Below, piece by piece: positions 1-26,464 of a stretch of 32,230 nt of DNA. Numbering within the stretch: the stretch's first letter is position 1; each line of letters begins with the position of its first letter. The notes beneath the pieces are model-generated. The model was not told the DNA's origin and ran no database searches. It saw only the letters and a list, made by a program, of their open reading frames with translations. The stretch comes from Acidobacteriota bacterium (lineage in GTDB: Bacteria; Acidobacteriota; Thermoanaerobaculia; Multivoradales; SZUA-115). The stretch is taken from NCBI GenBank assembly GCA_003231035.1, contig QIHU01000241.1, positions 1 to 32,230 of the forward strand. Reading direction: 5' to 3'. The translations under genes were made by a program, and so were the position numbers.

Positions 1-2890
1 GATCTCGGCATGGTGGTGGGGATGCTCGGGGTGCTCGCGGCGGGCGGCGCCTACCTGCCCCTCGACCCCTCACACCCCGCCGAGCGATTGCGCTGGATCC
101 TCGAGGATTCGACGGTGGCCCTTCTTCTCGCTTCGCGCGAGGCGCTCGAGCTTCTGCCGCGCACCGCCGCCCCACGGCTGGAGTTGGAACGCGATGGACG
201 GGTGCACCCAGCGCGGGCTCGCGGGCTCGTCGAACCGATGCCCGTGGTTCGTCACGAAGTGGATTCCCGGGCTTACGTCCTCTACACCTCGGGCTCGACC
301 GGTCGCCCCAAAGGGGTCGAAGTCAGCCACCGCTCGGTGGGAAACTTCCTCAGCTCGATGGCCCTTCGACCGGGAATGGAGGCGCACGATGTGATGCTCG
401 CCATCACCACCCTGGGCTTCGATATCTCGGTTCTGGAATTGCTGTTGCCCTTGTCCGTCGGCGGACGAGTCGAACTGGTCGAGAGCGAGGTGGCGGCCGA
501 TCCCGCCTCTTTGATGGCGGCGATCGACCGTGATGCAGGCCACCCCGGCGGGCTGGCGACTGTTGATCGAGGGCGGCTGGCAGGGTCGGGCCGCGCTCAA
601 GGTGCTGTGTGGTGGTGAGGCGCTGGTGGCGGAGTTGGCGGGTTGGCTGGCGGCGCGGTGTAGCCAGCTGTGGAACGTCTACGGGCCCACCGAGACCACC
701 GTCTGGTCTAGCGCTGAACGCATCCGCGGCCACGGCGAGGCGAGCCCTAAGGTGACCGTGGGGCGGCCGATCGCCAACACCCAGATCGTCCTGGCCGATC
801 CCCGAGGGCGGGCGGTGGCTTTGGGGGTGATGGGAGAACTGTGGATCGGCGGCGTCGGGGTGGCCCGCGGCTACTTGGGGCGCCCGGCGTTGACCGCCGA
901 ACGGTTCGTCCCCGATCCCTTCGCCGCGCTGAGCGGAGCGCGCATTTACCGCAGCGGAGATCTGGCTCGACGCCGCGCGGATGGCAAGCTTGAGCTCCTC
1001 GGTCGGCTCGACAGCCAGGTCAAGGTACGCGGTTTTCGGATCGAACTCGGCGAGATCGAGTCGGTCCTGGAAACGCTCCCCGAGGTGGCTCACGCGGTGG
1101 CTCTTGTTCAGGAAGAGGCTCCCGGTGAGCGCCGCTTGGTGGCCTACTTGGTCGCGAGTTCCGGGTTGGAGCTGGAGGCTGAAGCGCTGCGCTCGGCTCT
1201 GGGAGACCGTCTACCCGGGTACATGATCCCGGCCCTCCTGATGGCCGTCGAGAGTTTACCGCTCAACTCCAGCGGGAAGGTCGACCGCAAGGCCCTCGCG
1301 GCGCTGGGGGAAGTCTCGGTGGTGGCTGGCAAGGCCGCCTTCGTGGCCCCGCGCGGCGCCGGGCAACGGGCCTTGGCCGCCATCTGGAGTGAGGTTCTGG
1401 GCTGCGAACGGCTGAGCGTCGAGGACAACTTCTTCGCCCTCGGAGGGGACTCCATCCTGGCCATCCGCGTGGTCTCGATGGCCGCTGACCGAGGGCTGCA
1501 TTTCACCCCGCGGGACCTCTTCCGTCACCCGACGGTAGCTGCTTTGGCGGCCCTGGCCGAGGACGACGTGGAGAGCGACGAAGGCTGGACTCTGACCCCG
1601 GCGCAGCGCTGGCTACTCGCCGCTCCCAGCTGGGCCAGGATCGGCGAGGTGAGGGTTGTGCGCCCACCCCGTCCGATCTCTCGGCGGCAGCTGGAAGCGG
1701 CGCTGCGCGATGTCGTTGCCACCTACCCGAGCCTGGGCGGTCGCTTCGTGAGGGGCGATCCCATCGAGATCTTCGAAGCGGGTAAGGGGGTGGTTCCGAC
1801 GGTCTCTCGCGTGCAGCTGACTCTCTGCCGTTCCCAGGCGCGCCAGGCGGTGACGCGGGCGCTGCTTCGCCGCCTCGACAGCGCCTCCGGCCCTCTCTTG
1901 GTAGCGGCGCTGGTCGACGATGGGGCAGCGAGCGAGCTCGTTCTCGCGGCCCACCCCCTGGCCCTCGACGAGAGCTCCTGGCCGCCCTTGCTCGCTACCT
2001 TGGTCGGTCGGCTGGAGGGCGAAGAGACACGGAGCGATGAGGCGGCGCCGACCACCCGAACGCTCGTTGAGTTGGGGCGGCTGGGGCGCGGGGCTCCGCC
2101 GGCCGACGACGATGACCGGTGGCGGCGGCTGGCCGGCCAAACGGCGGGCGCCTTGGCGAGCGATGCGGGGTTGGCCTCGCCCCCGGACGCCGTTACCGCG
2201 CGCCACGGGGAGTCCTCGACCGAGTCCGTGGTGCGCCTGCGCTTGTCGACGGCCGCGACCCAGGATCTGACTTCGCTTTCCTCGGCCCTGGACGGTGAGC
2301 TCTCGGAATTCTTGCTCGCGGCGACGCTCCAGACCCTCTGCGCCTGGTCGGCCTGTCGTCGCCTCGTCGTGGCGGTCGGAGCCCAGGCCGCTGAACGGAG
2401 TCGTTGGGGATTGGCGCGGGAGGCGGTGGGAGCTTTCGCGCCTCCCGTGCCGGTGATCCTGGAGATCGAGCGCACGCTCGCGGCGACGGTGCCGAGAGTT
2501 CGCCGTCAGTTGCGCCGAAGCCGGCGGTTAGCGGCGATTTGGGGGATCACCTTGCCTGCCGAGTTGGCGGTGGAGGTCGGTTACCGATGGTGGCGAGCGG
2601 AGCCACCGGGGCCCGGTTGGGGCTGTGCCCCCGCCGCCTTCGACGCCCCCGCGCGCGGCTGGCTGCTGGCCATCCAAGGTTCTCACGACGAGGGCGCTCT
2701 GGGGGTCGAGTGGTCCTTCGATCCTGAGCGCCTCTCCCGCGGCGCTGTCGAGGCGCTCGCCGCCGCGACACTCGACGGCTTGCGCTCGTTGCTGGCAAGT
2801 GCCGCTCCCGCCGCGCGACAGCTCGTCGACCATTTTCCTGATGCTGAACTGAGTTCCGACGAACTGGAATCCCTACTGGCCGAGCTGTGA
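1..2890 (+). CDS. NRPS, 5'-truncated by the window, A(Gly)-T-degenerate E domain; frameshifted at about 525-533
   Basis: Frame of ORF 10..618 gives A-domain motifs GGAYLPLDP, YVLYTSGSTGRPKGV and GFDISVLE. Frame of ORF 530..2890 continues with MQATP, LCGGEAL, NVYGPTETTVWS, GELWIGG, YRSGDL, QVKVRGFRIELGEIE and SGKVDRKAL. T domain FFALGGDSI (Ser codon 1451) is the type normally preceding an E domain. C-terminal domain about 1580-2890 has HPLALDESSW and ends in a COM-like tail HFPDAELSSDELESLL. Confidence 0.9.
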
Positions 2891-2931
2891 TCGATCTTGA
2901 CCGTGACCGCCATCGAGCGCCGGAGACACCC

Positions 2932-5900
2932 ATGAATCGCAAGAACGTGGAAGACATCTACCTGCTACCGCCGACTCAACACGGCATGTTGTTGTACATG
3001 CTGCTCGAGAATCAGTACCCCGAGGTCTACCTCGAGCAGTACAGCTGCATCCTCGCCGGTTCCTTCAACCCGGCGGCGTGGCGCGAGGGTTGGCAAGCGG
3101 TCTTCGATCGGCATGCGGCGTTGCGCACTCAGTTCCTATGGGCCAAGCGCGATCGTCCTTTGCAGGTCGTGCGCCGCGATCTCGATCTTCCTTGGGAGGA
3201 ATACGACTGGAGAGAGCTCTCCGCTGACGAGCAGGAGCGGCGCTGGAGGAAGCTGCTCGAAGCGGATCGAAGTCGCGGCTTGACCCTCGATCAAGCACCC
3301 TTGATGCGCTGTGCCCTGGCGCGGGTCGGCGAGGTCCGGTTCCGGTTTCTGTGGACTTATAGCCACATGTTGGTCGATGGCTGGTCGATGGCTTTGATTC
3401 TGAGCGAGGTCCACAAGCTCTATCAGGCAGCGGTGGAAGGAGTCGATGCCGAGTTGCCCCCGGCGGAGAAGTTTCGTGACTTTGTCGCCTGGACTCAGGA
3501 GCAAGAGGTGGAGCGGGCGGAGAGTTTCTGGCGCCGTGAGCTGGCCGGCTTCGACGCGGCGACGCCGCTGCCCCTCGATGGCACCGGCCGGACGTTGGCC
3601 CCCGGCGAGGAGCGCTCCGCCCAGCTCGCGGTGATGGTGGACCCGGAGCTGACCGAGGGGCTGCGCACCTTGGCGCGTGGCAACCGGGTCACCCTGAACA
3701 CCCTGTTCCAGGCCGCCTGGGCGATGGTGCTGGCGCGCTACAACCGCCTCGATGACGTCACCTTCGGCGCCCTCTGTTCCGGCCGTCCGGCGGATCTGCC
3801 AGGGGTCGAGCGGATGGTCGGTCTGTTTATCAACTCCTTGCCAGCGCGCGTTCGTCTCGATCCAGTGCAGCGGCTCGGCGATTGGTTGGCTCAGCTGCAG
3901 GAGAGGCAAGTGGAGTCGCGCCAGTTCGAGTATTTGGCCGGGGAGCAGATTCGCGCCTGGAGCGATCTACCGCGCCGGGAAGAGGTCTTCAAGAGCGTGG
4001 TGATCTTCGAGAACTACCCGGTGGAGGGGACGGACTTCGAGGACTCCGGCCTGACCATCGAGGAGTGCGAGCTGCGGGAGGCTGGCAACTTCGCCTTCTC
4101 GCTGATGGTCAGCCTCCACGAAGGGGGGCTGAAGGTGACTTCCCTCTACCATCGCGACCGTTTCGATCGAACGGCGGTTCGACAACTCTTGGCAAGTCTC
4201 GAGACCGTCCTGCGGGCCTTTGTCGATCACCCTCAGGCCCGGCTGGGTGAGATCCAGCTCCTGGACGAGACGCAGCGCACGGCCGTTCTGGCCGCGGGCC
4301 ACGGGGAGATGATAGAGCGCACCACCGGTCTATTGCATCAACCTTTCGAGGAGATGGCTCGGCAGTGGCCTGGGCAGGTGGCGCTCGCCGCGGATCTGCT
4401 GGGCGATGACCCGCGGCGGATGAGCTATGCCGAGGTGGAGCTGCGCAGCCGAGCGCTGGCCATCGAGTTGCGCGGGAAGGGAGTGGGTCCAGATGTGGTG
4501 GTCGGTCTCCTGGGCTCGCGCTCCCTGGATTTCATTATCGCCATGCTCGGTGTGCTGCGCGCGGGCGGTGGTTACTTGCCGCTCGATCCCAGCTATCCCG
4601 CCGACCGCCTGGCCTTCATGGTGGAGGACTCGCGAGCGCGGGTCCTGGTGGTGGCGCCGGACGCCAAGGGGGCTCTAGAGACTTGTGATCTGCCGCGAAT
4701 CGATTTCGACGCGGCGGCGCGGGAACCCACTGAGCTGGGTGAACTCGCACCCAGCACGGCGATCCCAGCCAACCTCGCGGCCGTCATCTACACCTCGGGG
4801 TCGACCGGTAAGCCCAAGGGTGTTGGGGTGCCGCACGCGACCGCGTTGCACTACAGCCAGGACTCGATTGAGGTCTACGCCGTGGGGCCGCAAGACCGCC
4901 TGTTGCAGTTCTCTTCGATCGCGTTTGATACCAGTTTCGAAGAGATCTTCCCGGCGCTGTCGACCGGTGCCACCCTGGTGTTGCGCGATGAGGTGACCGC
5001 CAACTTCTTGCGCCGGGTCGGCGATCAAGGGATCACCGTGCTCAATCTGCCCACCGCTTTCTGGGGCGACCTAGCCCTGGAGATGGCGAAGAGTGTCGAC
5101 CGGGGTGACGAGATCGCGATCCCGGAGTCGCTGCGGGTGGTGATCATCGGCGGCGAGGAGGCTCAGAGCGACCGAGTGGAGGTCTGGCGCCGGGCGATGG
5201 AGAGTGCTCTCAAGGGCACTGGCGCGAGTCCGCCGACCCTGTTCAACACCTACGGCCCCACCGAGGCGACGGTGGTGACCACTAGGGCTGACCTCACCCA
5301 TCCCCGGCCGGAGCAGCGCTCGCTGGTGCCGATCGGGCGGCCGATCGCGAACGCGCGCACCTACCTCCTTGCGGCGACGATGGAGCCGGTGCCGCCGCTC
5401 GCCGATGGCGAACTCTACCTCGGGGGTGCTGGCCTGACGCGGGGCTACCTCGGTCGTCCAGCCGAGACCGCGGCCGCCTTTCGGCCGGACCCTTTCGCCG
5501 CGCGGCCGGGCGAGCGTCTCTACCGCAGTGGCGACCTGGCTCGGCGCCATCGCGACGGCCAGCTCGAGTTCCGTGGACGCATCGATCACCAAGTCAAGGT
5601 CCGCGGGTACCGCGTCGAGCTAGGGGAGATCGAGATGGCGCTGCGCGCCCTCGGTGGGGTGCGCGACGCGGTGGTGACGGTGCGCGGCGGCAACGGTGAC
5701 GACCGCATCGCCGCCTACTGGGTGGCGAGCGAGGTCGCCGAAGACGGGCTGAGCGCCATCGACCTGCGTCGGGCCCTGGGCGGCTCCTTACCCAAGTACA
5801 TGGTCCCCGCCTACTTTGTCGAGCTTCCAGAAATCCCGCTCACCGCCACCGGCAAGATTGACCGCCGGGCGCTGCCCGCTCCGGGGCCGCAACGGCCGGA

Positions 5901-8900
5901 GTTGGCGAGCGGCTATCGGGCGCCGCGCAACCCCGTGGAGGAGGTTCTGACCGGCATTTGGTGCGAGCTTCTGGGCGTCGAGCGGATCGGAGTCGAGGAT
6001 GACTTCTTCGAACTCGGCGGTCACTCGCTGCTCGTCGCCCGGTTGACCGGCCAGGTGCGCTCCTCACTGGGGGCCGAGTTGCCGATGACGGCGGTTTTCG
6101 ACCATCCGACGGTCGCCGAACTGGCCGAGATCGTGGGCGATAGCGACGCGCGGGGGAGCGACGCCGCGCCGGTTCCCGAGTTGCCCCCCTTGCTTGCCCT
6201 ACCTCGGGATGGGCGCAAGATTCCGCTCTCCTTTCCCCAGGAGCGGGTCTGGTTCCTCGACCGTCTTTCGGGGGGCGGCAACAAGGCCTACAACTTTCAG
6301 GTCACGATTTGGTTGCAAGGAGGGCTCCACGTGGGCGCCTTTCATCGCACCTTGGAAGAGATCGTGCGGCGCCATGAAGTGCTGCGCACCAGTTTCCCGG
6401 AGGTCGACGGCGAGCCGGTTCAGCGGATACATCCGCCTAGTCCCGTTCCGTTGCCCGTCGTCGACCTGTCGGGTTTGTCCACGGTGGAAGTCGGGGAAGC
6501 TTCGGAACGGCTGGTCGCCTTGGCGACGCAGATTCCTTTTGACCTGGGGCAGGGGCCGTTGATTCGGTGGTGGATGCTACGTTTGGCGGCGGACTATCAC
6601 GAGCTGCTCCAGGTGGAGCAGCACTTCGTGCATGACGGTTGGTCCTTCGCCGTGATGTTGCGCGAAATGAAGGCGATTTACGGCTCCTTCATCGCCAACC
6701 AACCCTCGCCGTTGCCGGAGTTGCCGGTGCAGTACGCCGACTATGCCCTCTGGCAACGCTCCTGGATGGAGGGCGAGGTGATGGAGCAGATGCTCGGCTA
6801 CTGGACGGGGCAACTGGAGGGTGCACCGACGGCGCTCGAACTGCCGACCGACCGGCCGCGTTCGAGCCAGCCGAGTTTCGCGGGCGACATGAACCTGTAT
6901 CAGATTCCGGGCGAGACCTACCGGGCGCTGCGCGAGTTCGGCCGTCGTGAGGGCTTCACCCTCTACATGACGACGCTCGCCGCCTTCTATCTGCTGCTCT
7001 ACCGCTACAGCGGCCAGACCGACATTCTGGTGGGGACCACCAACGCCAATCGGCGCACTCCCGAGATGGAAAAGCTGCTCGGGATGATCGTCAACAGCCT
7101 GGTGATGCGCGGCCAGCTGGGGGGCGACCCGACCTTCCGTGAGTTTCTGCTCCGGATCCGCGAAATGACCCTCGGCGGCTACAACTATCAGGACATGCCG
7201 CTCGAGCGGTTGGTGCGCGAGATCGATCCAGAGCGCCATGTGGGGCGCAATCCGCTCTTCCAAGTGCTCTTCCAGTTTCATGACGCGGCGATTCCCGACC
7301 TCGATTTTCCCGGCGACATCGAGGGCAAGTTCCTGGTCCGGGGAAACCGCACCGCCAAGATGGACTTGACGGTGATCGTCATTCCGCGGGCCGAGCAGCG
7401 GGTAGGCTCCGACGCCAGCGACGAAGAGATGCGGGCCAGCCTCCACTGGGAGTACTCGACCGAACTCTTCGACGAGGCGACGATCTCGCGGATGGTGGGC
7501 CACTACCTCACCTTGCTCGCCAGCGTTGTCGCCGATCCCGACTTGAAGCTCTCCGAGCAGCGCATGTTGAGCGCGGCGGAGACTCTGCAACTCACCCGCT
7601 GGAACGAGGAACACAGGTGCCCGCCACCGGAGTGGATCTCGATCGCCGTCCCGTTCGCCGAGCACCGCCGGCAACGGCCCAACGCCGCCGCGGTGTCGAT
7701 GGCTCCCGTGTCGATGGCCCTCGGCCTCGGGGCCAACGGGGGGGCGAGCCCTGGGGTGCGGGAGTGGAGTTACGCTGAGTTGGACCGCCATAGCGAGGAG
7801 CTGGCCCGGCGCCTGGGCGCTCTGGGCGTCGGCCCCGAGGTGGTGGTCGCGGTCTCGCTTTCCCGTTCGCCGTTCATGGTGGCGGCCCTGCTCGCGGTGG
7901 CCAAGCTCGGTGGAGCCTACCTTCCCCTCGATCCCGACTATCCGGCCCAGCGTCGTAGCTTCATGCTCGACGACTCGGGAGCGGCGCTGCTTCTCACCGA
8001 ACGGGGGTTGCTCGACGGGATACCACCGGTGGCGCGAGAAGGGGGGGTGGAAGTGGTGGTGATCGACGACGAGGGCGATGCCCCCGCCGCTCCCCACGGT
8101 GGGTCGCCGCTGGCCCGGCCCGACCCCGCCAACCTGGCCTACCTGATCTACACCTCGGGGTCGACCGGAAGACCCAAGGGGGTCGCCGTGACCTACGGGG
8201 GATTGGCCAACTTCCTCGCCTCGATGGCGCGACGCCCTGGCTTCACCGCCGAGGACGTGCTGCTGGCGGTGACCACCCTGTCGTTCGACATCGCTGGCTT
8301 GGAGCTCTACCTACCGTTGGTCACCGGCGGCAAAGTGGTCGTCGCCGACGCGGCGACGGCGGCCTCCGGGAGCCGGCTGGCGGCGGCGATCGAGAGCTCG
8401 CGGGCGACCGTGATGCAGGCGACCCCAGCGACCTGGCGGATGCTCCTCGAGGCTGGCTGGAGGCCGCCGGCAGGGCTCAAGCTGCTGGCGGGCGGCGAGG
8501 CCCTGCCCCCCGTCCTGGTGGCCGAACTGGCCGCCGCTTCGCGCGGGGAACTCGAACTATGGAACCTCTACGGTCCGACCGAGACGACGGTTTGGTCGAC
8601 CCTCGATCGGGTCGAGGTCGCACCGGCCAGCACCCTGAATTCGGTGAATTCCGTGTCGATCGGCCACCCGATCGACAACACGGGTGGCTACGTGGCCTCG
8701 CGGCGCTGGGAGCTGGCGCCGGTCGGGGTCCACGGTCAGTTGCTGATCGGCGGCGCCGGGCTGGCCCGTGGCTACTGGGCTCGGCCGGGTCTCACCGCCG
8801 AACGCTTCCGCCCCGATCCCTTCTCGCGGCGGCCGGGCGAGCGGCTTTACCTCAGCGGAGATCGGGTGCGTCGGCGCGAGGACGGCCGACTCGACTACCT

Positions 8901-9594
8901 GAGCCGGTTCGACGATCAGGTGAAGGTACGCGGCTTTCGCATAGAACTAGGTGAGGTGGAAGCGGCGTTGGTTCGCCATCCAGGGATCAGCCAGGCAGTG
9001 GTTGCCGCGCGCTCCGGGGCGGACGGTGTCGACGTCCTGGTGGCCTACCTGGTGGTCGATCCAAGTGGCGGCGGCGGTGAGGATCCCGGAGTGGGCGACT
9101 GGGGCGACGCCTTGCGGCGGATCCTGCCCGGCTACATGGTGCCCAGCTCCTTCGTCGTCCTCGACCAACTGCCCATGACCCCGAACGGCAAGGTGGACCG
9201 CAAGGCGCTGCCCGAGATGGATGGGGCCTTGCCGTTGGCGCAGGCTGAGTACCGTGCGCCGAGTACCGCCGTCGAAGAGTATTTGGTGGAGCTGTGGAGC
9301 GAGGTCTTGGCGGTGACCCCCATTGGCACCGGCGATTCCTTCTTCGCTCTTGGCGGCCATTCGCTGGCGGCCGGTCGGGTGCTGGCGCGGGTGCGGGATC
9401 GGCTGGCTGTCGATCTGCCGCTCTCGGTGATCTTTGATACACCGACCGTCGCGGCGCTGGCGGCGGCGGTGGAAACCGCCGGTGGGGTGCTGGGCGAAAC
9501 CGACCAGGCGCTGCAAGCCAAGGCGGCGGCGATGTCCGACGATGAACTCGATCTGCTGCTCGGCGAGATGTTGGGCCAAGGGGGGGCGCGATGA
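2932..9594 (+). CDS. Bimodular NRPS: C(DCL-like)-A(basic/diamino acid)-T-C(ureido-type)-A(Gly)-T
   Basis: 2235-aa ORF from GTG 2887; ATG 2932 has GGAG upstream. N-terminus NVEDIYLLPPTQHGML is typical of D-donor C domains, with active site SHMLVDG at 3361-3381. Two full A domains (YTSGSTGKPKG / YTSGSTGRPKG, YGPTE, GK(I/V)DR). Two T domains GGHSL (Ser codons 6025 and 9361). Second C domain has EQHFVHDG at 6616-6639. Confidence 0.96.
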   Translation: MNRKNVEDIYLLPPTQHGMLLYMLLENQYPEVYLEQYSCILAGSFNPAAWREGWQAVFDRHAALRTQFLWAKRDRPLQVVRRDLDLPWEEYDWRELSADEQERRWRKLLEADRSRGLTLDQAPLMRCALARVGEVRFRFLWTYSHMLVDGWSMALILSEVHKLYQAAVEGVDAELPPAEKFRDFVAWTQEQEVERAESFWRRELAGFDAATPLPLDGTGRTLAPGEERSAQLAVMVDPELTEGLRTLARGNRVTLNTLFQAAWAMVLARYNRLDDVTFGALCSGRPADLPGVERMVGLFINSLPARVRLDPVQRLGDWLAQLQERQVESRQFEYLAGEQIRAWSDLPRREEVFKSVVIFENYPVEGTDFEDSGLTIEECELREAGNFAFSLMVSLHEGGLKVTSLYHRDRFDRTAVRQLLASLETVLRAFVDHPQARLGEIQLLDETQRTAVLAAGHGEMIERTTGLLHQPFEEMARQWPGQVALAADLLGDDPRRMSYAEVELRSRALAIELRGKGVGPDVVVGLLGSRSLDFIIAMLGVLRAGGGYLPLDPSYPADRLAFMVEDSRARVLVVAPDAKGALETCDLPRIDFDAAAREPTELGELAPSTAIPANLAAVIYTSGSTGKPKGVGVPHATALHYSQDSIEVYAVGPQDRLLQFSSIAFDTSFEEIFPALSTGATLVLRDEVTANFLRRVGDQGITVLNLPTAFWGDLALEMAKSVDRGDEIAIPESLRVVIIGGEEAQSDRVEVWRRAMESALKGTGASPPTLFNTYGPTEATVVTTRADLTHPRPEQRSLVPIGRPIANARTYLLAATMEPVPPLADGELYLGGAGLTRGYLGRPAETAAAFRPDPFAARPGERLYRSGDLARRHRDGQLEFRGRIDHQVKVRGYRVELGEIEMALRALGGVRDAVVTVRGGNGDDRIAAYWVASEVAEDGLSAIDLRRALGGSLPKYMVPAYFVELPEIPLTATGKIDRRALPAPGPQRPELASGYRAPRNPVEEVLTGIWCELLGVERIGVEDDFFELGGHSLLVARLTGQVRSSLGAELPMTAVFDHPTVAELAEIVGDSDARGSDAAPVPELPPLLALPRDGRKIPLSFPQERVWFLDRLSGGGNKAYNFQVTIWLQGGLHVGAFHRTLEEIVRRHEVLRTSFPEVDGEPVQRIHPPSPVPLPVVDLSGLSTVEVGEASERLVALATQIPFDLGQGPLIRWWMLRLAADYHELLQVEQHFVHDGWSFAVMLREMKAIYGSFIANQPSPLPELPVQYADYALWQRSWMEGEVMEQMLGYWTGQLEGAPTALELPTDRPRSSQPSFAGDMNLYQIPGETYRALREFGRREGFTLYMTTLAAFYLLLYRYSGQTDILVGTTNANRRTPEMEKLLGMIVNSLVMRGQLGGDPTFREFLLRIREMTLGGYNYQDMPLERLVREIDPERHVGRNPLFQVLFQFHDAAIPDLDFPGDIEGKFLVRGNRTAKMDLTVIVIPRAEQRVGSDASDEEMRASLHWEYSTELFDEATISRMVGHYLTLLASVVADPDLKLSEQRMLSAAETLQLTRWNEEHRCPPPEWISIAVPFAEHRRQRPNAAAVSMAPVSMALGLGANGGASPGVREWSYAELDRHSEELARRLGALGVGPEVVVAVSLSRSPFMVAALLAVAKLGGAYLPLDPDYPAQRRSFMLDDSGAALLLTERGLLDGIPPVAREGGVEVVVIDDEGDAPAAPHGGSPLARPDPANLAYLIYTSGSTGRPKGVAVTYGGLANFLASMARRPGFTAEDVLLAVTTLSFDIAGLELYLPLVTGGKVVVADAATAASGSRLAAAIESSRATVMQATPATWRMLLEAGWRPPAGLKLLAGGEALPPVLVAELAAASRGELELWNLYGPTETTVWSTLDRVEVAPASTLNSVNSVSIGHPIDNTGGYVASRRWELAPVGVHGQLLIGGAGLARGYWARPGLTAERFRPDPFSRRPGERLYLSGDRVRRREDGRLDYLSRFDDQVKVRGFRIELGEVEAALVRHPGISQAVVAARSGADGVDVLVAYLVVDPSGGGGEDPGVGDWGDALRRILPGYMVPSSFVVLDQLPMTPNGKVDRKALPEMDGALPLAQAEYRAPSTAVEEYLVELWSEVLAVTPIGTGDSFFALGGHSLAAGRVLARVRDRLAVDLPLSVIFDTPTVAALAAAVETAGGVLGETDQALQAKAAAMSDDELDLLLGEMLGQGGAR

Positions 9595-12500
9595 GCGAGG
9601 CGATGAGCGATCATCGGTCCGAACTCGTGAATCTCACCCGTGACGAGAAGCTAGCGCTCCTCAGCCGGCTGAGCCGGCAGCGGCAGGCGTCGTCGTCGCT
9701 TCCTGACTTCTCAGGCGGTAACGAATCCTACCCATTGACCTTCTCGCAGGAACGGTTGCTCTTCCTTCATCACCTTGAGGGCGGAGTTAACGTGCACACT
9801 CAGTTTCGTGCCATGTGGCTCGACGGCCCCCTCGATCTGGCGGCGCTCGACGCTGCCTGGGTCGAGATCGTGACTCGCCACGAGGCCTTGCGGACCCGTT
9901 TCGAGGGCGGCGGGGAGGAGGCACGGCAGGTGGTCGCTCCCCCCCCCGAGACGGTGGTCGAGTTCGTCGACTTGGAAGAATTGCCGGCCGAACAGCTCCG
10001 GGCGGCGGCTCAAGAGTTGGCCGCCAGCAAGGCTCGTGAGCCCTTCGACCTGGAGGCTGGCCCCGTCCTGCGGGTCACCCTGGTTCGGATGGGGCGGGAG
10101 GAGCACGCGCTGATCGTCGGCCTTCACCACATCGTCTCCGACGGTTGGTCGCGCGGCCTCCTCCTGGCCGAGATGGCGGCGCTCTACGACGCATTCACCG
10201 GCGGAGGCCCCTCGCCGCTGCCTCCGGTGCGTGCGCAGTTGGGAGCCTTCGCCCGCTGGCAGCGCCGACGGATGAGCGGCGAGCGGCTCCAGGCCGAACT
10301 CGACTTCTGGTCGGCCCGCTTGCGGGGGGCGCCGCCGCGGCTAGAGCTGCCGACCGACCGACCCCGCCGCGGCCTGGTGACTCCACGGGGCGGGATCGAG
10401 AGCCTCGAATTGCCCGCTGAGGTGGCCGACGGTCTGCGCCGGTTGGCGCGCCGCGCCGGAGCGACTCCCTTCATGGCGATGCTGGCCCTCTACGACGCCT
10501 TCCTCTTTCGCTACAGCGGCAAGCGCGAGGTGGTCGTGGGGCTACCGGTGGCCAGCCGCGACCATACCGAGCTTGAGACGGCGATCGGCTGCTTCGCCAG
10601 CACTTTCGTGCAGCGTATTCAGGGCGCGGTCGACGGCTCGTTCAACGATCTATTGAACCGGGTCAAGGGCGAGATTTCCGCCGTCCTGCCGCACGCCGAG
10701 GTGCCTTTTGAGAAAGTGGTCGAAGCGGTCGCGCCCCAGCGCGACTTCTCGCACAATCCGGTCTTCCAAGTGATGTTCGCCCTCCAGGAGGTTGGCGAAG
10801 ATCGGTTTACTCTGGCCGGCTTGGAGGTCTCCTCGCTGGTGGTCGAACGGGCGATGGCCAATGTTGACTTGACCTTGGAGTTGGTTGACGCTGGCGGCCG
10901 CGGCGCCCTACGTGGCTTCTTCGACTACGCCCTCGATCTCTTCGACGCCACCACCATTCAGCGGATGGTCGGCCACCTCGGCAGGTTGGCCGAGTCGATC
11001 GTGGCGAGCCCCGATTCGCCCCTCTCCCGTTTGCCGATCCTCGCTCCCGAAGAGCGCCAAGAACTCCTCACCGGCTGGGCCGCACCGCCTTCCGGTGAGC
11101 TGTTGCCCCCGGTCCACCTGCGCTTCGCCGCGGGCGCGCAAGAATGGGGCGATGCGGTGGCGATGGTCGATGGCGATCGCCTGCTGAGCTATACCGAGCT
11201 CGACCGGCGGGCCAACCGGCTGGCTCGGCTGTTGCGCCAGCGCGGGGTGGGGGCGGACGTTCCGGTCGGGGTTTGCTTCGCCCGCTCGACCGAGTTGATG
11301 ATCTGTCTGCTGGCGGTGCTCAAGGCGGGGGGCGCCTATCTTCCCCTCGATCCGACCTATCCGCGCCAGCGGCTGGAACTGATGATCGAGGACTCTCAGA
11401 CCACCCTGGTACTGAGCGAAGGCGAAGCGGCCCGACGGCTTCCCAAAGCGAGCGTCGGCTCTAGCGCTCCCCAGTTGCTCCTCTTGGATCGCGGGCCATT
11501 CGGCATTCTGCACGAGGTCGAGGCGCGGAGTGCCGAGGCGCTGGAGCCCGTCTCTGGCCTAGACAATCTCGCCTACCTGATCTACACCTCCGGCTCGACC
11601 GGCAAGCCCAAGGCGGTGGCGGTGCCGCACCGCGGCCTCACCCACCACGCCTCCGCGCTGCGCGCTCGGCTGCGACTGGCCCCGGGCAAGCGGTTCCTGT
11701 ACAGCGCCTCGATCAGCTTCGATGTGGCGGCTGAGGAGATCTATCCCACCTGGCTCTCCGGCGCCACGCTAGAAATTCTGCCGCCGGGCCCCTTTCCCTC
11801 GCTGGCCGACTTGCAAGGTTTAATCGAGCAGCGGCGGCTCAACACGATCAATCTGCCCACCCCCTATTGGCACGAGTGGGTCTCCGAGTTGAAACGCACC
11901 CGCGCAACGGTGCCATCGAGTCTCGACTCCGTACTCGTTGGCACCGAGCAAGCCTCGGCCGAGCGGTTAATCGAGTGGCTCGAACTGGTGGGGGAGCGGC
12001 CGGCATGGATCAACGCCTACGGCCCCACCGAGGCGACGGTCAGCGCCACCACTTTCATTCCGCGCTCGGCCGACGCCGAGGGGATGACCCGGGTGCCCAT
12101 CGGTCAACCGATCGAGGGGGCGCGGGCCTACATCCTGGACCCCCATTTCGAACCGCTGCCGATCGGTCTTCCCGGCGAGCTCTTCCTGGCCGGTCCGGGA
12201 GTGGTGCGCGGCTACCTGCGGCGGCCGGCCTTGACCGCCGCCGCCTTCGTTCCGAACCCGTTCGCCGAGCTCGCCGGTCAACGGCTGTACGCCACCGGCG
12301 ACCGCGCCCGATATCGCCTAGGGGGCAACATCGAGTTCCTCGGCCGGGGCGACGATCAGGTCAAGATCCGCGGCTTCCGAATCGAGCTGGGCGAGATTAG
12401 CGAAGGGCTGCGCAGCCATCCCAACGTTGCCGACTGCGCCGTGCTGGTTGCAACCCAAGCGGGCGGTGGGCGGTTGATCGCCTACGTGGTGGTCGATCCG

Positions 12501-15500
12501 ACCGACCCTACCTCCGGCGCTGAGTTGACTTCCCATCTGGCCGCCCGCCTGCCGGCCTACATGGTGCCGGAGATCCGCGTGGTGGCCGATCTACCGCTGA
12601 CCAGCGCTGGCAAGGTCGACCGCTTGAAACTGGCGACGATGGCAGCGCGGCGCGAAGAGGCTGAGGCCGAGACGGTGGCCCCCAGCGGTCCACTGGAAGA
12701 GGCGGTCGCCGCCATCTGGTGCGAAGTCTTGGCGACGGAGGAGGTCGGGGCGGATGACGACTTCTTCGAGATCGGCGGCCACTCTCTGCTCGCCACTCGG
12801 ATCATCGCCCGGCTCAAACAGGTGCTCGATGTCGAGATCGGCCTCCCCGCCTTCTTCGAGGCGCGCACCGTGGTGGCGCTGAGCGTGGCGGTGGCCCAGG
12901 CGCGCACCGCGGGCAAGAACTCGTCGCCACCCATCGTGCCGGTGCCCCGTGAAGGGGGCGTGGTCTGCTCCTTCGCCCAGCAGCGGCAGTGGTTCTTGCA
13001 TCAACTCTTGCCCGACAACGTCGCCAACAATATTCCGCAATTGCTCGCCTTTCGCGGCGCCCTCCAGGTGGCCGCCTTGCAGCGCTCGCTGGCCGGCCTG
13101 GTGCGCCGCCACGAGGTCCTGCGCACCACCTTCGCGATGGTCGAGGAAGGGACCAACGCCGGCCAACCGATGCAGTTCGTGGCGCCGCCCGAGCGGGCCG
13201 CCACGGTGGCCTTACCGGTGGTCGATCTTTCGCGGATCAGCGACCGGCTGGGGCTTGCGCAAGGGGAGGCGGTGGCGCAGCGCCTCGCCACCGTGGAGTC
13301 GTTGCGTCCCTTCAATTTGGCGACCGGACCACTCCTGCGGGCCCATCTCCTACGGCTGAGTGGCGATTATCAGCTCCTCTATTTCTGCACCCACCATATC
13401 GTCTCGGACGGCGTCTCGATCGGTCTCACCTTGCGCGACTGGGTGACCCTCTACGCCGCCGAGGTGAGCGGGAGGCCGGCGCGGTTGCCCGAGTTACCGA
13501 TCCACTACGCCGACTACGCTGCCTGGCAGCGCACTTGGCTTGAGGGGGAGGCTCTCGAAGAGCAGCTGGACTACTGGCGCGCCGCCCTCGACGGTGCGCC
13601 GGGGGCACTCGACCTACCGCTCGACCGCCCGCGGCCGGCGGTCGAAGAGGCACGCGGCAAGCGCCACTACCTGCGCCTAGGCGAGGAAGATTCCGCGGCG
13701 CTCGCCGCGCTGGGCCGGCGCCACGGCGCCACCTCGTTCATGACCCTCGCCGCTTTTTTCAACGTTCTCCTTTCGCGCTGGTCGGGAGCGCGCGATGTGG
13801 TGATCGGCTGGCCGATCGGCGGTCGCAACTCGGCCGAGGTGGAGAATCTCGTCGGCTTCCTGGCCAACATCTTGGTGATGCGCACCGACCTCAGCGGTTC
13901 GCCCAGCTCCCTCGACGTGCTGAGCCGGGTCCGCAAGGGGGCTTTGGGTGCCTACGATCATCAGGAGCTGCCCTTCGAGCAGTTGGTCAAGGAACTCCAC
14001 CCCGAACGGGACCTGTCGCGCCACCCGATCTTTCAGTCTTTCTTCGTCCTGCACCACCCGGCGGGCCAGTTACCCGAGGTGGAGGGGGTCGAAGTGACCG
14101 TGCCGAGCTTCGACAACGGCACCTCGCGACTCGATCTGCTCCTCTCCTTGATGCACACGCAGGGCGGACTGCATGGATTCTTCGAGTTCAACAGCGACCT
14201 TTTCGACGCCACCACGATCGACCGCCTGAGCCGTCAGTTCAAGACTCTCGTCGCCGCCGCCGTGGCCACACCGCGGCGGCCGGTCGAGGAGCTACCCTTG
14301 CTCGACGCGGCGGCGCGCCATCAGTTGGTTCGCGGCTGGAACGACTCGGTGGTTCCCCTCGTCGCCGAGGCCACCGAGTTCACGGTGCCGATCCATCGTT
14401 TGGTGGAGCAACGGGCGGCGGCGACACCCCTGCGCGAAGCGGTCCGCTTTCACAACCAGAGCCTGACCTACGCCGAACTCGACGCGCGGGCGAACAGGTG
14501 GGCCCACTCTCTGCTGGAACACGAGGTCATGGGCAGGCCGGTGGCGGTGGCGCTCGAACGCTCGCTGGAACTGGTGGTCGCCTTGCTCGCGGTGCTCAAG
14601 GCGGGGGGTGCCTACCTGCCGCTCGATCCCGCCTTCCCATCTGCGAGGCTGGACTACATGGTGCGCGATTCGGGAGCGCGGACGTTGCTCACCGAGCCGG
14701 GGTTGCGCCACCTCTTCTTGGCCGCCGAAGAGGAAGCCGAGCGGGAGGGCAAGCCGCTGAGGGTGATCGAGGTCGAGCCCGGCTACGAGGGCCTCCCCGA
14801 ACCTCTCGCCGAAGTGGAGTTGCCCGAGGTCGACCCCGCTCAGCTCGCCTATCTGATCTACACCTCGGGCTCGACGGGGCTACCCAAAGGGGTGGAGGTT
14901 CCCCACGCCGCGGTGGTCAACCTGCTGACCTCGATGGCCGCCGCGCCAGGGCTCGACGCCAACGACACCCTGTTGGCCATCACCACTGTCGCCTTCGATA
15001 TTCACGCCCTCGAGATCTGGCTGCCGCTCATCCGTGGAGCGCGCATCCAGCTGGCCGATGGCGAGAGCGCGGCCGACGGTGTTCTGCTGCGGCGTCTGCT
15101 AGAAGACTCGGAAGCTAACGTCATGCAGGCGACCCCGGCCACCTGGCGAGCCCTCCTGGCCGCCGGCTGGACGGGCGGGCGCGGCTTGCGCGCACTGTGC
15201 GGCGGCGAGGCGTTGGCGGCCGATCTGGCACTCCAAGTCGGCGAGCGGGTGGGCAGTTTGGTCAACGTCTACGGCCCCACGGAGACCACCGTGTGGTCGG
15301 CGTTGGAGTTCGTCCAACCTCCCGGCGCCGCCTCCCACCGGGCCGAAAGCTCCACCTTCAGCGCTACCCCCTCGATCGGTCGACCGATCGGCAACACGCA
15401 GTTATACGTGGTCGACGAGAGGCTGGAGCCGGTCCCGGTGGGGGTGATCGGAGAGCTGTTGATCGGCGGTGACGGCGTGGTGCGGGGGTACCACGCGCGA

Positions 15501-16313
15501 CCGGCGCTCACCGCCACCAGCTTCATTCCCGATTCGCTAGCCTCGCCACCCAACGGCCATCCCCCGGGTGACACCGCCCGTGGCGCCCGTCTTTATCGCA
15601 CCGGCGACCTGTGCCGCCGCCTCGCCGATGGGCGCTTGCTCTTCGTGGGCAGGCGCGACAGCCAAGTCAAGGTACGCGGCTTCCGCATCGAGCTGGGGGA
15701 GGTCGAGGCGGCGGTGGAGCATCATCCTGGGGTCGCGGCCGCGGTCGCGGCGGTCCACCGGAGCGAGGCCGACGGTGAGGCTCAGTTGGTGGCCTACTTC
15801 GTGGCCCGGCCGCAAGCACCCGGTGGCGCGCCCCGGGTGGGCGCCTTGCGCGCCGCCCTGCGCGAGCAACTGCCCGACTACATGATTCCCTCGCTCTTCA
15901 TCCTGCTAGAAGAGCTACCCCTAACCCCCAACGGCAAGGTGGATCGCAAGAATCTGCCGAACCCGGAATTGGAACGTTCCACCCTTGGGACGGCCTACGA
16001 GCCACCCCGAGGCGAAGTTGAGGAGGCGGTGGCCGCGATGTGGCGAGAAGTGCTGCGGCTGGACCAAGTGGGCCGTCACGACCGTTTCTTCGATATCGGT
16101 GGCCACTCCTTGATGGCGATGCAGATCCTCTCCCGGGTCACCCGGCGTTTCGGGGTCGAGCTGCCGCTGCGGGCGGTGTTCGAGAAGCTGACGGTCGCCG
16201 CTCTTTCCGAGTTGATCGTGACCACCGAATTTGCCGACACCGACGAAGAGCTGCTGAGCGAACTGATGAAGGAACTCGACGATGGGTCCACACAAGGAGA
16301 GCTCGATGGCTGA
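9591..16313 (+). CDS. Bimodular NRPS: C-A(basic, Arg/Lys-like)-T-C-A(Gly)-T
   Basis: 2240-aa ORF whose start overlaps the upstream stop (ATGA). C motifs HHIVSDGWS and HHIVSDGVS with LCL-type LELPTDRPR / LDLPLDRPR. Two A domains with A3, A5, A7, A8 and A10 motifs; two T domains IGGHSL. Confidence 0.96.
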   Translation: MSEAMSDHRSELVNLTRDEKLALLSRLSRQRQASSSLPDFSGGNESYPLTFSQERLLFLHHLEGGVNVHTQFRAMWLDGPLDLAALDAAWVEIVTRHEALRTRFEGGGEEARQVVAPPPETVVEFVDLEELPAEQLRAAAQELAASKAREPFDLEAGPVLRVTLVRMGREEHALIVGLHHIVSDGWSRGLLLAEMAALYDAFTGGGPSPLPPVRAQLGAFARWQRRRMSGERLQAELDFWSARLRGAPPRLELPTDRPRRGLVTPRGGIESLELPAEVADGLRRLARRAGATPFMAMLALYDAFLFRYSGKREVVVGLPVASRDHTELETAIGCFASTFVQRIQGAVDGSFNDLLNRVKGEISAVLPHAEVPFEKVVEAVAPQRDFSHNPVFQVMFALQEVGEDRFTLAGLEVSSLVVERAMANVDLTLELVDAGGRGALRGFFDYALDLFDATTIQRMVGHLGRLAESIVASPDSPLSRLPILAPEERQELLTGWAAPPSGELLPPVHLRFAAGAQEWGDAVAMVDGDRLLSYTELDRRANRLARLLRQRGVGADVPVGVCFARSTELMICLLAVLKAGGAYLPLDPTYPRQRLELMIEDSQTTLVLSEGEAARRLPKASVGSSAPQLLLLDRGPFGILHEVEARSAEALEPVSGLDNLAYLIYTSGSTGKPKAVAVPHRGLTHHASALRARLRLAPGKRFLYSASISFDVAAEEIYPTWLSGATLEILPPGPFPSLADLQGLIEQRRLNTINLPTPYWHEWVSELKRTRATVPSSLDSVLVGTEQASAERLIEWLELVGERPAWINAYGPTEATVSATTFIPRSADAEGMTRVPIGQPIEGARAYILDPHFEPLPIGLPGELFLAGPGVVRGYLRRPALTAAAFVPNPFAELAGQRLYATGDRARYRLGGNIEFLGRGDDQVKIRGFRIELGEISEGLRSHPNVADCAVLVATQAGGGRLIAYVVVDPTDPTSGAELTSHLAARLPAYMVPEIRVVADLPLTSAGKVDRLKLATMAARREEAEAETVAPSGPLEEAVAAIWCEVLATEEVGADDDFFEIGGHSLLATRIIARLKQVLDVEIGLPAFFEARTVVALSVAVAQARTAGKNSSPPIVPVPREGGVVCSFAQQRQWFLHQLLPDNVANNIPQLLAFRGALQVAALQRSLAGLVRRHEVLRTTFAMVEEGTNAGQPMQFVAPPERAATVALPVVDLSRISDRLGLAQGEAVAQRLATVESLRPFNLATGPLLRAHLLRLSGDYQLLYFCTHHIVSDGVSIGLTLRDWVTLYAAEVSGRPARLPELPIHYADYAAWQRTWLEGEALEEQLDYWRAALDGAPGALDLPLDRPRPAVEEARGKRHYLRLGEEDSAALAALGRRHGATSFMTLAAFFNVLLSRWSGARDVVIGWPIGGRNSAEVENLVGFLANILVMRTDLSGSPSSLDVLSRVRKGALGAYDHQELPFEQLVKELHPERDLSRHPIFQSFFVLHHPAGQLPEVEGVEVTVPSFDNGTSRLDLLLSLMHTQGGLHGFFEFNSDLFDATTIDRLSRQFKTLVAAAVATPRRPVEELPLLDAAARHQLVRGWNDSVVPLVAEATEFTVPIHRLVEQRAAATPLREAVRFHNQSLTYAELDARANRWAHSLLEHEVMGRPVAVALERSLELVVALLAVLKAGGAYLPLDPAFPSARLDYMVRDSGARTLLTEPGLRHLFLAAEEEAEREGKPLRVIEVEPGYEGLPEPLAEVELPEVDPAQLAYLIYTSGSTGLPKGVEVPHAAVVNLLTSMAAAPGLDANDTLLAITTVAFDIHALEIWLPLIRGARIQLADGESAADGVLLRRLLEDSEANVMQATPATWRALLAAGWTGGRGLRALCGGEALAADLALQVGERVGSLVNVYGPTETTVWSALEFVQPPGAASHRAESSTFSATPSIGRPIGNTQLYVVDERLEPVPVGVIGELLIGGDGVVRGYHARPALTATSFIPDSLASPPNGHPPGDTARGARLYRTGDLCRRLADGRLLFVGRRDSQVKVRGFRIELGEVEAAVEHHPGVAAAVAAVHRSEADGEAQLVAYFVARPQAPGGAPRVGALRAALREQLPDYMIPSLFILLEELPLTPNGKVDRKNLPNPELERSTLGTAYEPPRGEVEEAVAAMWREVLRLDQVGRHDRFFDIGGHSLMAMQILSRVTRRFGVELPLRAVFEKLTVAALSELIVTTEFADTDEELLSELMKELDDGSTQGELDG

Positions 16314-19300
16314 GCCCGAGATTGCCCGACGTATTGCCGACCTGCCTCCCGAAGAACGGGCGAAGCTTTTCGAGAAGGTGCTCCTGCGCCGAAAACCTCG
16401 ATCCGAGACACCTTCGCGACCGCCGCTCCTGCGCCACAGTCGCGACGACTTCAGCTTTCTCTTGTCCTTTGCCCAACAGCGGCTCTGGTTCCTCAATCTC
16501 TACGAACCGGACAGCCCCGAGTACAACGTGCCGCAGACTTTCCGCATCGAGGGAGTTCTCGACCCCGAGTTGCTGGAGGGTTCGCTCAACGGGGTGGTCT
16601 CGCGGCACGAAAGTCTGCGCACCACCTTCGTCTCCCAAGAGGGGACGCCGTACCAAAGGGTGGCACCCGCGATGCGGGTGGCGCTGCCTTGCCTCGATCT
16701 AACCCACCAGCCCGAGGAGGAGGCGTGGGAGGTGGCCATGGAGGGCTGCCGGGAGGACGCGGCTCAGCCCTTCGATCTAGCGGCCGGTCCGCTCCTGCGC
16801 GGCCGGCTCTATCGGGTGGCCGAGGAGGGCTGGGTGCTTTACTTGAACGTGCATCACATCGCCAACGACCAGTGGTCGATGGGGGTCTTGGCGCGCGAGC
16901 TGGCCGAGTTCTACGCCGCCGGTGCCGAGAAACGCGCGCCCGATCTTCCCGAACTACCGGTGCAGTATCTCGACTACGGCCTGTGGCAACGCGAATGGCT
17001 CTCCGGCGAAGAGCTGGAGCGCCAGGTCGATTTTTGGCGCCGCCGTTTGGGTTCCGTGCCACCGCTCGACCTGCCCACCGACCGCCCCCGGCCGGCGGTT
17101 CGAACCTTCGCGGGAAATACCTTGCCCTTGGCGCTGGCGCCGGGGCTGGGTTCGCAGCTGGGAAAACTCGCCGCGGCCGAGTCGGCGACCCTCTTCATGG
17201 TCCTGTCGGCGGCCTTCAAAGCGCTCCTTCACCACTACACGGCGCAAGAGGATTTCGCCGTGGGGACGCTGATCGCCAACCGCCGTTTGCCTCAGGTGGA
17301 AGACTTGATTGGCTTCTTCGCCAACACCCTGGTGCTGCGCACCGACCTAGCGGGCGATCCGCCCTTTAGCCAGCTCATCGAACGCGAGCGGGAGGTGGCG
17401 CTCGATGCTTTCGCCCACCAAGACTTGCCCTTCGAGAAGTTGATCGACGAGCTCAACCCGCCGCGCGACACCTCGCGCACGCCGTTGTGCCAGGCGATGC
17501 TGATTCTGCTCAACGCACCCGGCGAGCCCCTCCACCTTCCCGGCGCCGAGCTGGCCCCCGTGGCGCTCGACAACCGCACTTCCAAGATGGAGATGACCCT
17601 CTATCTGGCGGGTGAGGGCGATGGGTTGGGTGGCTACCTCGAATACAACCGCGATCTCTTCGATCGCGCCACGATCGAGCGCTTCCTAGGCCATTTCCAC
17701 ACCCTGCTCGAAAGCTGCGTCGCCGATCCGAATCTGCCCCTGTCGCGGGTCCCGCTCCTCGCCGAGGAGGAACGCCGCCACTTATTGTTCGACCTCAACG
17801 ACACCACCACTCCCGCGCCCACCGCGCCGCTCCACCACCTGCTAGCGGCGCGTTGCGCGGCATCGCCGGAGGCGACGGCGGTGGAAGTGGCGGGTGAGAA
17901 GCTGACCTACGGCGATCTGGAGCGGCGCTCCAACCGGCTGGCGCGCTACCTGGCGAGGCGCGGGGTCGGCCCGGAGGTGCTGGTGGGCCTCTGTGTCGAG
18001 CGCTCCCTCGACATGGTGGTGGCACTGCTCGCGGTGCTCAAGGCGGGTGGGGGCTACGTGCCGCTCGATCCCGAGTATCCGGCCTCGCGGTTGGAACGGA
18101 TGCTGGGGGACTCGCGGGCGCCGGTGGTGGTGACCCAGACGGCCTTGATCGAGAAACTTCCACCGAACACAGCGACGATCGTCACTCTTGACAAGGATGG
18201 CGATGGCGCCGCGATCGCGGCGGAAAGCGCCGAGCCCTTCGACGGCGGCGCGAGCCTTTCGAGTTTGGCCTACGTGATCTACACCTCTGGCTCCACCGGA
18301 ACCCCCAAGGGGGTGCAGATCTCGCATTTGGCGCTGGTCAATTTTCTGCGCTCGATGGAGCGCAGCCCTGGATTTACCGCCGCCGACAGCCTGCTGGGGG
18401 TGACCACGCTCTCCTTCGATATCGCCGGGTTGGAACTCTACCTACCGCTCCTCGCCGGAGGCCGCCTGGTGCTCGCCGCTCGCGACGAGGCGCAGGCCGG
18501 CGAGCGGCTAGTCGAACTCCTCGACCGGTCCGAGATCACCGTGATGCAGGCCACCCCGGCGACCTGGCGTCTGTTGCTGGGCGCCGGCTGGTCCGGCGAT
18601 CCGAACTTGAAGGTACTGTGCGGCGGTGAGGCACTGCCCGAAGATCTAGCGGCGGAGTTGGTCGCCAAGGCCGGCGAGGTGTGGAATGTCTACGGGCCGA
18701 CCGAGGCGACCATCTGGTCGACCCTCGACCGGCTGGAGCCGGTGGGTAAGGTCTCTATCGGTCTGCCGCTCGACAACACGCAGGTTCACTTGCTGGCGCC
18801 GGGCTCGCTGCTTCCGGTGCCGCTGGGAGTGCCCGGTGAGCTGCTGATCGGCGGTCTAGGGCTGGCTCGCGGTTACCGGGGACTGCCGGCGATGACCGCG
18901 GACCGGTTCGTTCCCGACCCGCACTCGGAGGTTGCCGGCGCCCGCTTGTACCGCACCGGCGACCTCGCCCGTCGCTTTCCTGACGGCCGCTTGGAGTGCT
19001 TGGGCCGGATCGACCACCAGGTCAAGGTGCGCGGCTTCCGCATCGAGTTGGGCGAAATCGAGGTGGCTCTGGCGAGCCACGATGGCGTCGCCCAGACGGT
19101 GGTGCTGGCCCGTGAGGATACGCCGGGCAGCAAACGGCTGGTCGCCTACTGGACCGGCACGGCCGGCTCCCAGCCTCCGTCGACGGCCGACCTCAAGAAC
19201 TGGATCCAGCAGAGTCTGCCCGACTACATGGTGCCCGCCTTCTTCGTCCCCCTCGACGAGCTGCCGCTCACCCCCAACGGCAAGACCGATCGGCTAGCCC

Positions 19301-24736: not shown

Positions 24737-24767
24737 GGCGGCGGCGCGACGGCACTGGAGACTGACG

Positions 24768-26441: not shown

Positions 26442-26464
26442 TCGTCGCGAGCCGGGCCGCAACC

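Follow-up and report, generated by a model that had tools for sequence, protein, structure and literature searches.

A condensation domain of the ureido-signature clade in mid-line position after a lysine-type code in an Acidobacteriota nonribosomal peptide synthetase

The contig QIHU01000241.1 of the Acidobacteriota metagenome-assembled genome (MAG) GCA_003231035.1 was analyzed over its whole length of 32,230 nucleotides (hereafter, the window). One of its genes encodes a nonribosomal peptide synthetase (NRPS) with two modules of condensation (C), adenylation (A), and carrier (T) domains in the order C1-A1-T1-C2-A2-T2. The second condensation domain, C2, has the active-site motif EQHFVHDG and belongs to the clade of domains that bear the signature of ureido-forming condensation domains (Curea); it is not an ordinary LCL domain. 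A complete module with a lysine-type adenylation code precedes C2 in the same protein, and the same type of code precedes every other mid-line member of the clade that was found. With moderate confidence, we propose that C2 is a domain of the Curea lineage that acts in the middle of the assembly line after a lysine module and would form a urea between the carrier-bound lysine and the next residue, so that peptide stands on both sides of the urea.

The signature motif and the clade of C2

The published mark of Curea domains is the sequence EHHXXHDG (Yu and van der Donk, PMC11212132). In SnaA, alanine in place of the Glu or of the extra His lowered urea formation to the detection limit, and the exchange H746A at the second His abolished the product (PMC11212132). 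The same text states that no C domain of another function in MIBiG bears EHHXXHDG, that Curea domains are closely related to LCL domains, and that their usual place is after a loading A-T didomain (PMC11212132). In all isolated ureido nonribosomal peptides treated there, the assembly line extends one side of the urea only, and the urea is located at the start of the chain (PMC11212132). The initial annotation of the window, made from the letters alone, had named EHHxxHDG as the ureido signature with its usual place at the chain start, which matches this source, and had located EQHFVHDG at 6616–6639, where it was confirmed in the DNA (GAG CAG CAC TTC GTG CAT GAC GGT) and in the translation. The translation of 2887–9594 contains ELLQVEQHFVHDGWSF around the motif, which occupies the C3 position in a Pfam Condensation match of full length (residues 1111–1569). 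Both the Glu before the His pair (E1244) and the extra His before Asp-Gly (H1249) are present, as are the catalytic H1246, D1250, and G1251 of the C3 motif. C2 thus retains all three residues that are critical in SnaA (the Glu, the extra His, and the second His).

Protein searches ranked giant multi-domain NRPSs by their summed scores, and single C domains were therefore re-scored. When C2 was compared with 1298 C-domain stretches from 273 pooled proteins, the top six were all EHHxxHDG domains (427 to 486 bits), with the best ordinary domain at 426 bits. Closer relatives were found in a scan of species genomes, the pattern of which admitted His or Gln at the first His position by design. These are located in Thermoanaerobaculia MAGs (L009, 58% identity; L010, 53% identity) and in an Acidobacteriota MAG (L011). 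The pattern E.H..HDG occurred in 32 of 1362 near-full-length C domains (27 with His at the second position, three with Gln including the window, one with Phe, and one with Asp). Since the Glu in first and the His in sixth place are shared by these 32 column-aligned domains, which form one clade, the motif is no coincidence.

In a tree of 110 rows, the 32 signature domains together with one EHHLIDDG domain formed a single clade nested among LCL domains, with a Shimodaira–Hasegawa-like approximate likelihood ratio test (SH-aLRT) support of 99; C2 grouped with L009 and L010, also at 99. A tree of 77 rows with 13 more metagenome domains recovered the signature clade at 100 and placed a metagenome relative, L208, as the sister of C2, the group of C2, L208, L009, and L010 being supported at 99. 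Both trees are quick searches with SH-aLRT as their support measure; no long branches were flagged in the 77-row tree, and the end branch of C2 (0.35–0.37) is near the median. The three remaining LCL-type domains found in the window (P0003_41, P0003_1118, and P0004_52) fall outside the signature clade. A C-domain phylogeny had been suggested with the initial annotation, in which grouping with ordinary LCL domains was taken as the outcome that would speak against a ureido-forming type. C2 groups with the signature domains in both trees instead.

Positions were regarded as diagnostic if they were conserved in at least 85% of 44 other signature domains and present in at most 15% of 300 ordinary LCL domains. 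All six such positions are found in C2 (E140, H145, M296, H361, N383, and P396 in domain numbering). The Glu and the extra His are present in 100% of the 44 signature domains and in 0% of the 300 ordinary ones; beyond the motif, M296, H361, N383, and P396 are diagnostic, the last of these within a short insert. The closest solved structures to C2 over the full length are the C domains of Txo2 and Txo1 of teixobactin biosynthesis (6p1j, 306 bits; 6oyf, 292 bits). They share the LCL-type N-terminal motif PLSFAQQRLWF with C2, but read MHHIVSDG and are devoid of the insert of about nine residues (IPRAEQRVG...) and of M296, H361, and N383.

A functional anchor for the clade is provided by L018 and P0386 (80% identical), which combine A-T-C(EHHFVHDG)-A-T and a Lant_dehydr_N domain in a fusion protein. 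This is the kind of partnership with PEARL enzymes that has been tied to ureido chain reversal (PMC11212132). L018 (4216–13374) is an actinomycete NRPS in a single frame, in which the PEARL-like Lant_dehydr_N domain is accompanied by another A domain. Members of the signature family were found in Acidobacteriota, Gemmatimonadota, and other soil lineages. A PDB search yielded no signature-bearing chain; the 'special condensation domain' of 8z0q reads PWGIFDGWS. tblastn searches of plasmids aimed at the plasmid-borne ppp and mbp clusters gave no Pseudovibrio or Microbulbifer among the matches listed (40 and 30), and a protein search with the actinomycete domain L013 gave no Stackebrandtia among the 120 matches listed.

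SnaA of Stackebrandtia nassauensis (threopeptin; PMC11212132) has a Curea domain that resembles C2 in the Glu, the extra His, the catalytic second His, and the relation to LCL domains. Its motif EHHLVHDG (PMC11212132) is a string common to many members of the signature clade. The two differ in that SnaA follows a loading A-T didomain and uses two free aminoacyl thioesters, whereas C2 has Gln at the first His position and a full C-A(Lys-type)-T module before it.

Mid-line position, lysine-type codes, and the Gln variant

The placement of C2 is unlike that of the published Curea domains, since C1-A1-T1 precedes it within the same protein. A partial gene with the order A-T-(E-like) lies further upstream, so that the earlier description of C2 as downstream of at least two modules holds by gene order. 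The C domains of SylC (syringolin) and of PppA, MbpA, and ChmA (pseudovibriamide, pseudobulbiferamide, and chitinimide) are held to form the urea with bicarbonate or CO2 and to reverse the chain. Unlike C2, they link the first module to the second and work on the residue that begins the peptide.

Eight signature domains have an in-frame C-A-T module upstream (the window, L208, L009, P0007, P0090, P0230, P0298, and L061, the frame of the last being truncated at its 5' end within a C domain). In all eight, the code of the upstream A domain fits the lysine-type pattern D[AT]E[DN][I/L/S]GT[IV][VC]K. The codes are DTENIGTVVK (A1 of the window), DTEDIGTIVK, DAEDIGTVVK, DTEDLGTIVK, DAEDIGTIVK, DAEDLGTIVK, DAENIGTVVK, and DAEDSGTVCK. 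In contrast, none of 31 distinct loading-type signature members with a readable code has a code of this type (P0274 is the same protein as L013, and the two were counted as one). Of 1159 pooled A domains, 11 fit the pattern in its strict form, or 13 if Leu is accepted at position 299, and eight of those precede ordinary C domains. The codes are alignment-based readings in which position 331, gapped in most rows of the multiple alignment, was filled by pairwise alignment.

The anabaenopeptin synthetase AptA/ApnA (A-T-Curea-A(Lys)-T-E) is similar to the window in that a Curea domain is paired with a lysine module of similar code. The lysine of anabaenopeptins uses both of its amines, with the urea on N-alpha and an amide on N-epsilon. 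The lysine of AptA serves as acceptor, its module following the C domain, and its N-epsilon is acylated upon release. The lysine-type module of the window instead provides the donor, stands before C2, and is itself preceded by an NRPS C domain. For the Lys module of Nostoc edaphicum AptA, the code DTEQIGSII has been given (PMC9564503, Table 3). Compared with this code, the only comparator from the literature, A1 has five identical and four conservative positions out of nine. The A1 code, here called lysine-type, may specify lysine, although ornithine or another basic residue is also possible; literature searches for the lysine-type codes returned nothing relevant.

On the tree, the mid-line state requires three changes and is found in two well-separated subclades. 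The upstream C domain is of the DCL type in one of them (window, L208, and L009) and of the LCL type in the other; in P0007, P0090, P0230, and P0298, it is an ordinary HH C domain. The association with the lysine-type code is therefore to be read as the result of about two to three independent events. By domain order, L090, L154, and L017 also seemed to be mid-line members. They were rejected and counted as loading-type, because in each of them a new reading frame begins at the A domain. L017 (2583–4001, a Bacilli MAG) has a loading-type signature domain, EDHLVHDG, and the gene before it terminates in a C-like domain with the motif IHPIANDS. The catalytic His of this C-like domain is replaced by Pro, and it resembles the degenerate E-like domain upstream in the window.

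The change of the first His to Gln, initially described as an oddity of the locus, turned out to be recurrent. The first His is replaced by Gln, Phe, or Asp in five of the 32 signature domains, compared with 18 of 1330 others. The Gln state changes six times on the 77-row tree, and the starred branches force at least five of these changes. A search for further EQHxxHDG proteins, proposed at the outset, proved productive: a metagenome scan for E-Q-H-x-x-H-D-G-W found at least 120 loci, and among the matches listed, 20 lie in C domains, most of which follow a loading A-T, and 100 are chance or unrelated matches. In 19 of the listed loci (L094, L106, L111, L112, L125, L128, L130, L134, L139, L146, L153, L157, L161, L177, L182, L188, L191, L199, and L202), the reading frame encodes something other than a C domain; most such frames have about 500 amino acids with EQH[FY]PHDGW approximately 40 to 95 residues from the frame start and represent an unrelated, recurrent protein family.

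The metagenome relative L208 has the same order C1(SH)-A-T-C2-A-T and an identical QVEQHFVHDGWSF stretch at an overall identity of 53%. An assembly error as the source of the Gln is therefore unlikely. Between the window and L208, identity is 61.6% for C2, 47.1% for C1, 51.7% for A1, and 52.3% for A2, which makes C2 the best conserved large domain. Judging from its recurrence and its retention in L208, the Gln is a real, old, and tolerated variant of the signature that indicates neither a new reaction nor decay. The contigs of one sequencing run (X1, share 0.23) were short low-depth pieces, mostly 90–95% alike, and uninformative on the Gln codon as well as on the frame break in the upstream gene described below.

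A putative two-sided urea and the alternatives

In the proposed course, lysyl-S-T1 would receive the upstream peptide from C1 on one of its two amines. C2 would then join the remaining free lysine amine, CO2 or bicarbonate, and the amine of glycyl-S-T2 into a urea, a step that would consume the lysyl thioester and free the lysine carboxylate. If C2 works through a Leuchs anhydride, as has been proposed for SylC and SnaA (PMC11212132), the alpha-amine would have to be free and C1 would acylate N-epsilon; on a route through a mixed anhydride and rearrangement (PMC11212132), use of the epsilon-amine is conceivable. From T2, the chain would be elongated by the products of the next two NRPS genes, and the outcome would be peptide flanking the urea on either side, bridged by lysine. 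Ureido domains depend on a donor amine that is still free, and after an upstream condensation a diamino acid would be the simplest source of it. Since each mid-line member follows a lysine-type A domain, a second amine should be available, which is likely the answer to the donor-amine problem. Tentatively, the order C-A(Lys)-T-Curea-A-T might represent a distinct NRPS logic with extension of the urea on two sides and chain reversal in mid-peptide, as a third solution beside the PEARL enzymes.

Several points weigh against the formation of a urea by C2. The domain deviates from the literal eight-residue signature at one position, the first His, and this His is not one of the SnaA residues that were mutated (PMC11212132). 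The published ureido domains all use the free alpha-amine of a loading module. The trees were calculated without the characterised SylC, SnaA, PacN, AptA, and PppA domains, and the clade is labelled ureido-forming only via the published signature and the PEARL fusion. The lysine association in eight of eight members traces back to about two to three independent origins and includes a code from a cut frame (L061), and the assignments of lysine and glycine are read from codes. That C1 acylates N-epsilon is a step that we infer. Furthermore, the upstream gene is frame-broken near nucleotide 529 and its E-like domain is degenerate, so the assembly line may not run as drawn, and the MAG is fragmented into 841 contigs.

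The best surviving alternative, which we nevertheless consider unlikely, is that C2 is of ureido descent but makes an ordinary peptidyl-Lys-Gly amide, the Glu and the extra His being inherited baggage or serving to handle the cationic side chain of lysine. A donor that is normally acylated and has no free alpha-amine would suit such a reaction. The unmet literal signature would also be in accordance with it, as would the nesting of the signature clade in the LCL domains, a close kinship stated in PMC11212132. However, all six clade-specific positions are kept in C2, which is also the best conserved large domain in comparison with L208 and has an end branch near the median. In addition, the absence of the signature from MIBiG C domains of other function (PMC11212132) argues against an amide-forming domain, and if a spare amine is needed, just such an exclusive pairing with a diamino-acid module would be expected.

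It is rather improbable that C2 makes its urea at a de facto chain start, with C1 and the upstream gene being unused or relics, both amines of the lysine free, and a product beginning with Lys-CO-Gly. The state of the upstream region would support such a start. Its A domain is split by the frame break near nucleotide 529, and the E-like domain (1580–2887) reached only 27.8 bits with Pfam Condensation, which is under the cut-off, and 26.7 bits with the E domain of TycA; its AHPLALDE aligns with IHHLVVDG, so that Pro stands in place of the catalytic His. The replacement of the first His of C1 by Ser and the situation in L017, where a loading-type signature domain comes after a gene ending in the IHPIANDS domain, point in the same direction. 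C1 itself, however, is full length and keeps the catalytic His, Asp, and Gly, and its best solved match is the C domain of McyB (8hlk; 346.7 bits over 3–449). The Ser is also found in C1 of L208 (FSHLVLDG; L208 648–2003), and L009 reads FHHLILDG. L208 keeps C1(SH)-A(Lys)-T-C2 behind an upstream gene that is devoid of an E-like domain and ends in T plus a docking-type tail, and ordinary HH C domains precede the modules of P0007, P0090, P0230, and P0298. A chain start at C2 would also leave the lysine-type upstream A domain in eight of eight members unexplained.

Decay of C2 or of the whole cluster to an inactive state, with the His-to-Gln change as a part of it, is very improbable: frame breaks near nucleotide 529 and on the neighboring contig C166, the degenerate E-like domain, and the Gly-to-Gln change in the C motif of the last NRPS gene could be taken for it, but the three NRPS frames of 2235, 2240, and 1564 amino acids are open, the Gln is kept in L208 and recurs in at least 20 metagenome C domains, the catalytic His, Asp, and Gly are present in C2, and the frame breaks may be assembly faults in this MAG of 841 contigs.

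The gene region and implications

The window represents the whole of contig C3 of the MAG, which comprises 841 contigs and roughly 5 Mb. Its left 21 kb contain four NRPS reading frames, all in the same direction (Table 1). The stop codon of the first overlaps the start of the gene encoding C2.

Table 1. Coordinates of the NRPS genes and of the domains in the C2-containing protein
Feature	Position	Strand	Description	Basis
Upstream NRPS gene piece	530..2890	+	A-domain end, T, degenerate epimerization (E)-like domain, acidic docking-type tail
NRPS gene with C2	2887..9594	+	2235 aa, C1-A1-T1-C2-A2-T2	ORF, translation, Pfam, domain order
C1	2932..4326	+	DCL-type condensation domain, motif YSHMLVDG, N-terminal NVEDIYLLPPTQHGML stretch
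A1	4354..5886	+	Adenylation domain, lysine-type code DTENIGTVVK	Code reading
T1	5923..6156	+	Carrier domain, would present the lysyl donor to C2	Pfam, domain order
C2	6199..7611	+	Condensation domain, residues 1105–1575	E.H..HDG clade in trees
Active-site motif of C2	6616..6639	+	EQHFVHDG	Residues 1244–1251
A2	7657..9216	+	Adenylation domain, code DILQ.GLVWK
T2	9259..9486	+	Carrier domain of the acceptor	Pfam, domain order
Following NRPS gene	9591..16313	+	2240 aa, C-A-T-C-A-T	Both C domains ordinary: LHHIVSDG, THHIVSDG
Last NRPS gene	16282..20976	+	1564 aa, C(VHHIANDQ)-A-T and terminal C-like domain

The C motifs of the window other than that of C2 are YSHMLVDG, LHHIVSDG, THHIVSDG, and VHHIANDQ, the last of which, in the last NRPS gene, has Gln in place of Gly. 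The terminal C-like domain of the same protein is without HHxxxDG and reads SAHFYPVDLG; it is presumably a release or cyclization domain. The code of A2, DILQ.GLVWK, is one that we take to be glycine-type. Codes of the form DILQ.G[LV][VI]WK are common to three A domains of the window, namely A2 of the second gene (7657–9216), A2 of the third gene (approximately 14400–15900), and the A domain of the fourth gene (approximately 17800–19300). On our assumption that these codes stand for glycine, the downstream peptide would be glycine-rich.

At the contig start (1–620), the A domain is split over two frames with the break near 525–532. Frame 1 runs to ...AAIDR and frame 2 resumes from VMQATPAGW, with about four residues seemingly missing. 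There is no homopolymer at this position, and the break reflects a true deletion or else a fault of the assembly. The last 91 bases of contig C166 (7.8 kb, reverse strand) are identical to positions 1–91 of the window and lie inside a conserved A-domain motif. C166 encodes more NRPS modules, and its reading frame switches at least once within a C-A linker. Judging from this overlap, a join of C166 and the window is plausible, but a repeat-induced break of the assembly graph is possible.

The NRPS genes are followed on their 3' side by genes for an MFS transporter, a DUF5916/CBM9 protein, a B12 radical S-adenosylmethionine (SAM) enzyme, a methyltransferase, a protease on the opposite strand, an allantoinase, and an allantoicase. 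The B12-binding radical-SAM protein (24720–27598) reached 587.5 bits with the model of PhpK-family P-methyltransferases, slightly short of the cut-off of 600. The class I SAM methyltransferase gene comes directly after it, with overlapping stop and start codons. The allantoinase AllB (570.8 bits, cut-off 357.85) and the adjoining allantoicase (343.7 bits) are encoded in 29666–32131; these purine-breakdown genes probably mark the end of the NRPS cluster. A hydantoinase of the cluster was considered for the amidohydrolase beside the allantoicase and rejected, since this protein is AllB. For the hydantoin linkage suggested as an option in the initial annotation, no pertinent evidence was found. 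No PEARL or lantibiotic-dehydratase gene was found in the window.

Literature searches for mid-chain or isopeptide-linked ureido nonribosomal peptides, which covered main texts mostly from outside the subscription journals, returned none, and the literature in this scope places ureido C domains only between modules 1 and 2. C2 thus represents a known domain lineage in an undescribed but recurrent architecture, which comes with a predictive rule. Ureido peptides such as anabaenopeptins, syringolins, and antipain are protease and proteasome inhibitors. If the proposed urea formation by C2 is true, the cluster would make an unreported scaffold, peptide-Lys(urea)-peptide, with a free internal carboxylate. 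The rule for the prediction of ureido-forming domains would be widened, as Gln, Phe, or Asp may take the place of the first signature His, and a lysine-type A domain before the C domain would mark the mid-line subtype. This would give genome miners a testable rule and enzymologists a case in which to ask which amine a ureido domain uses.

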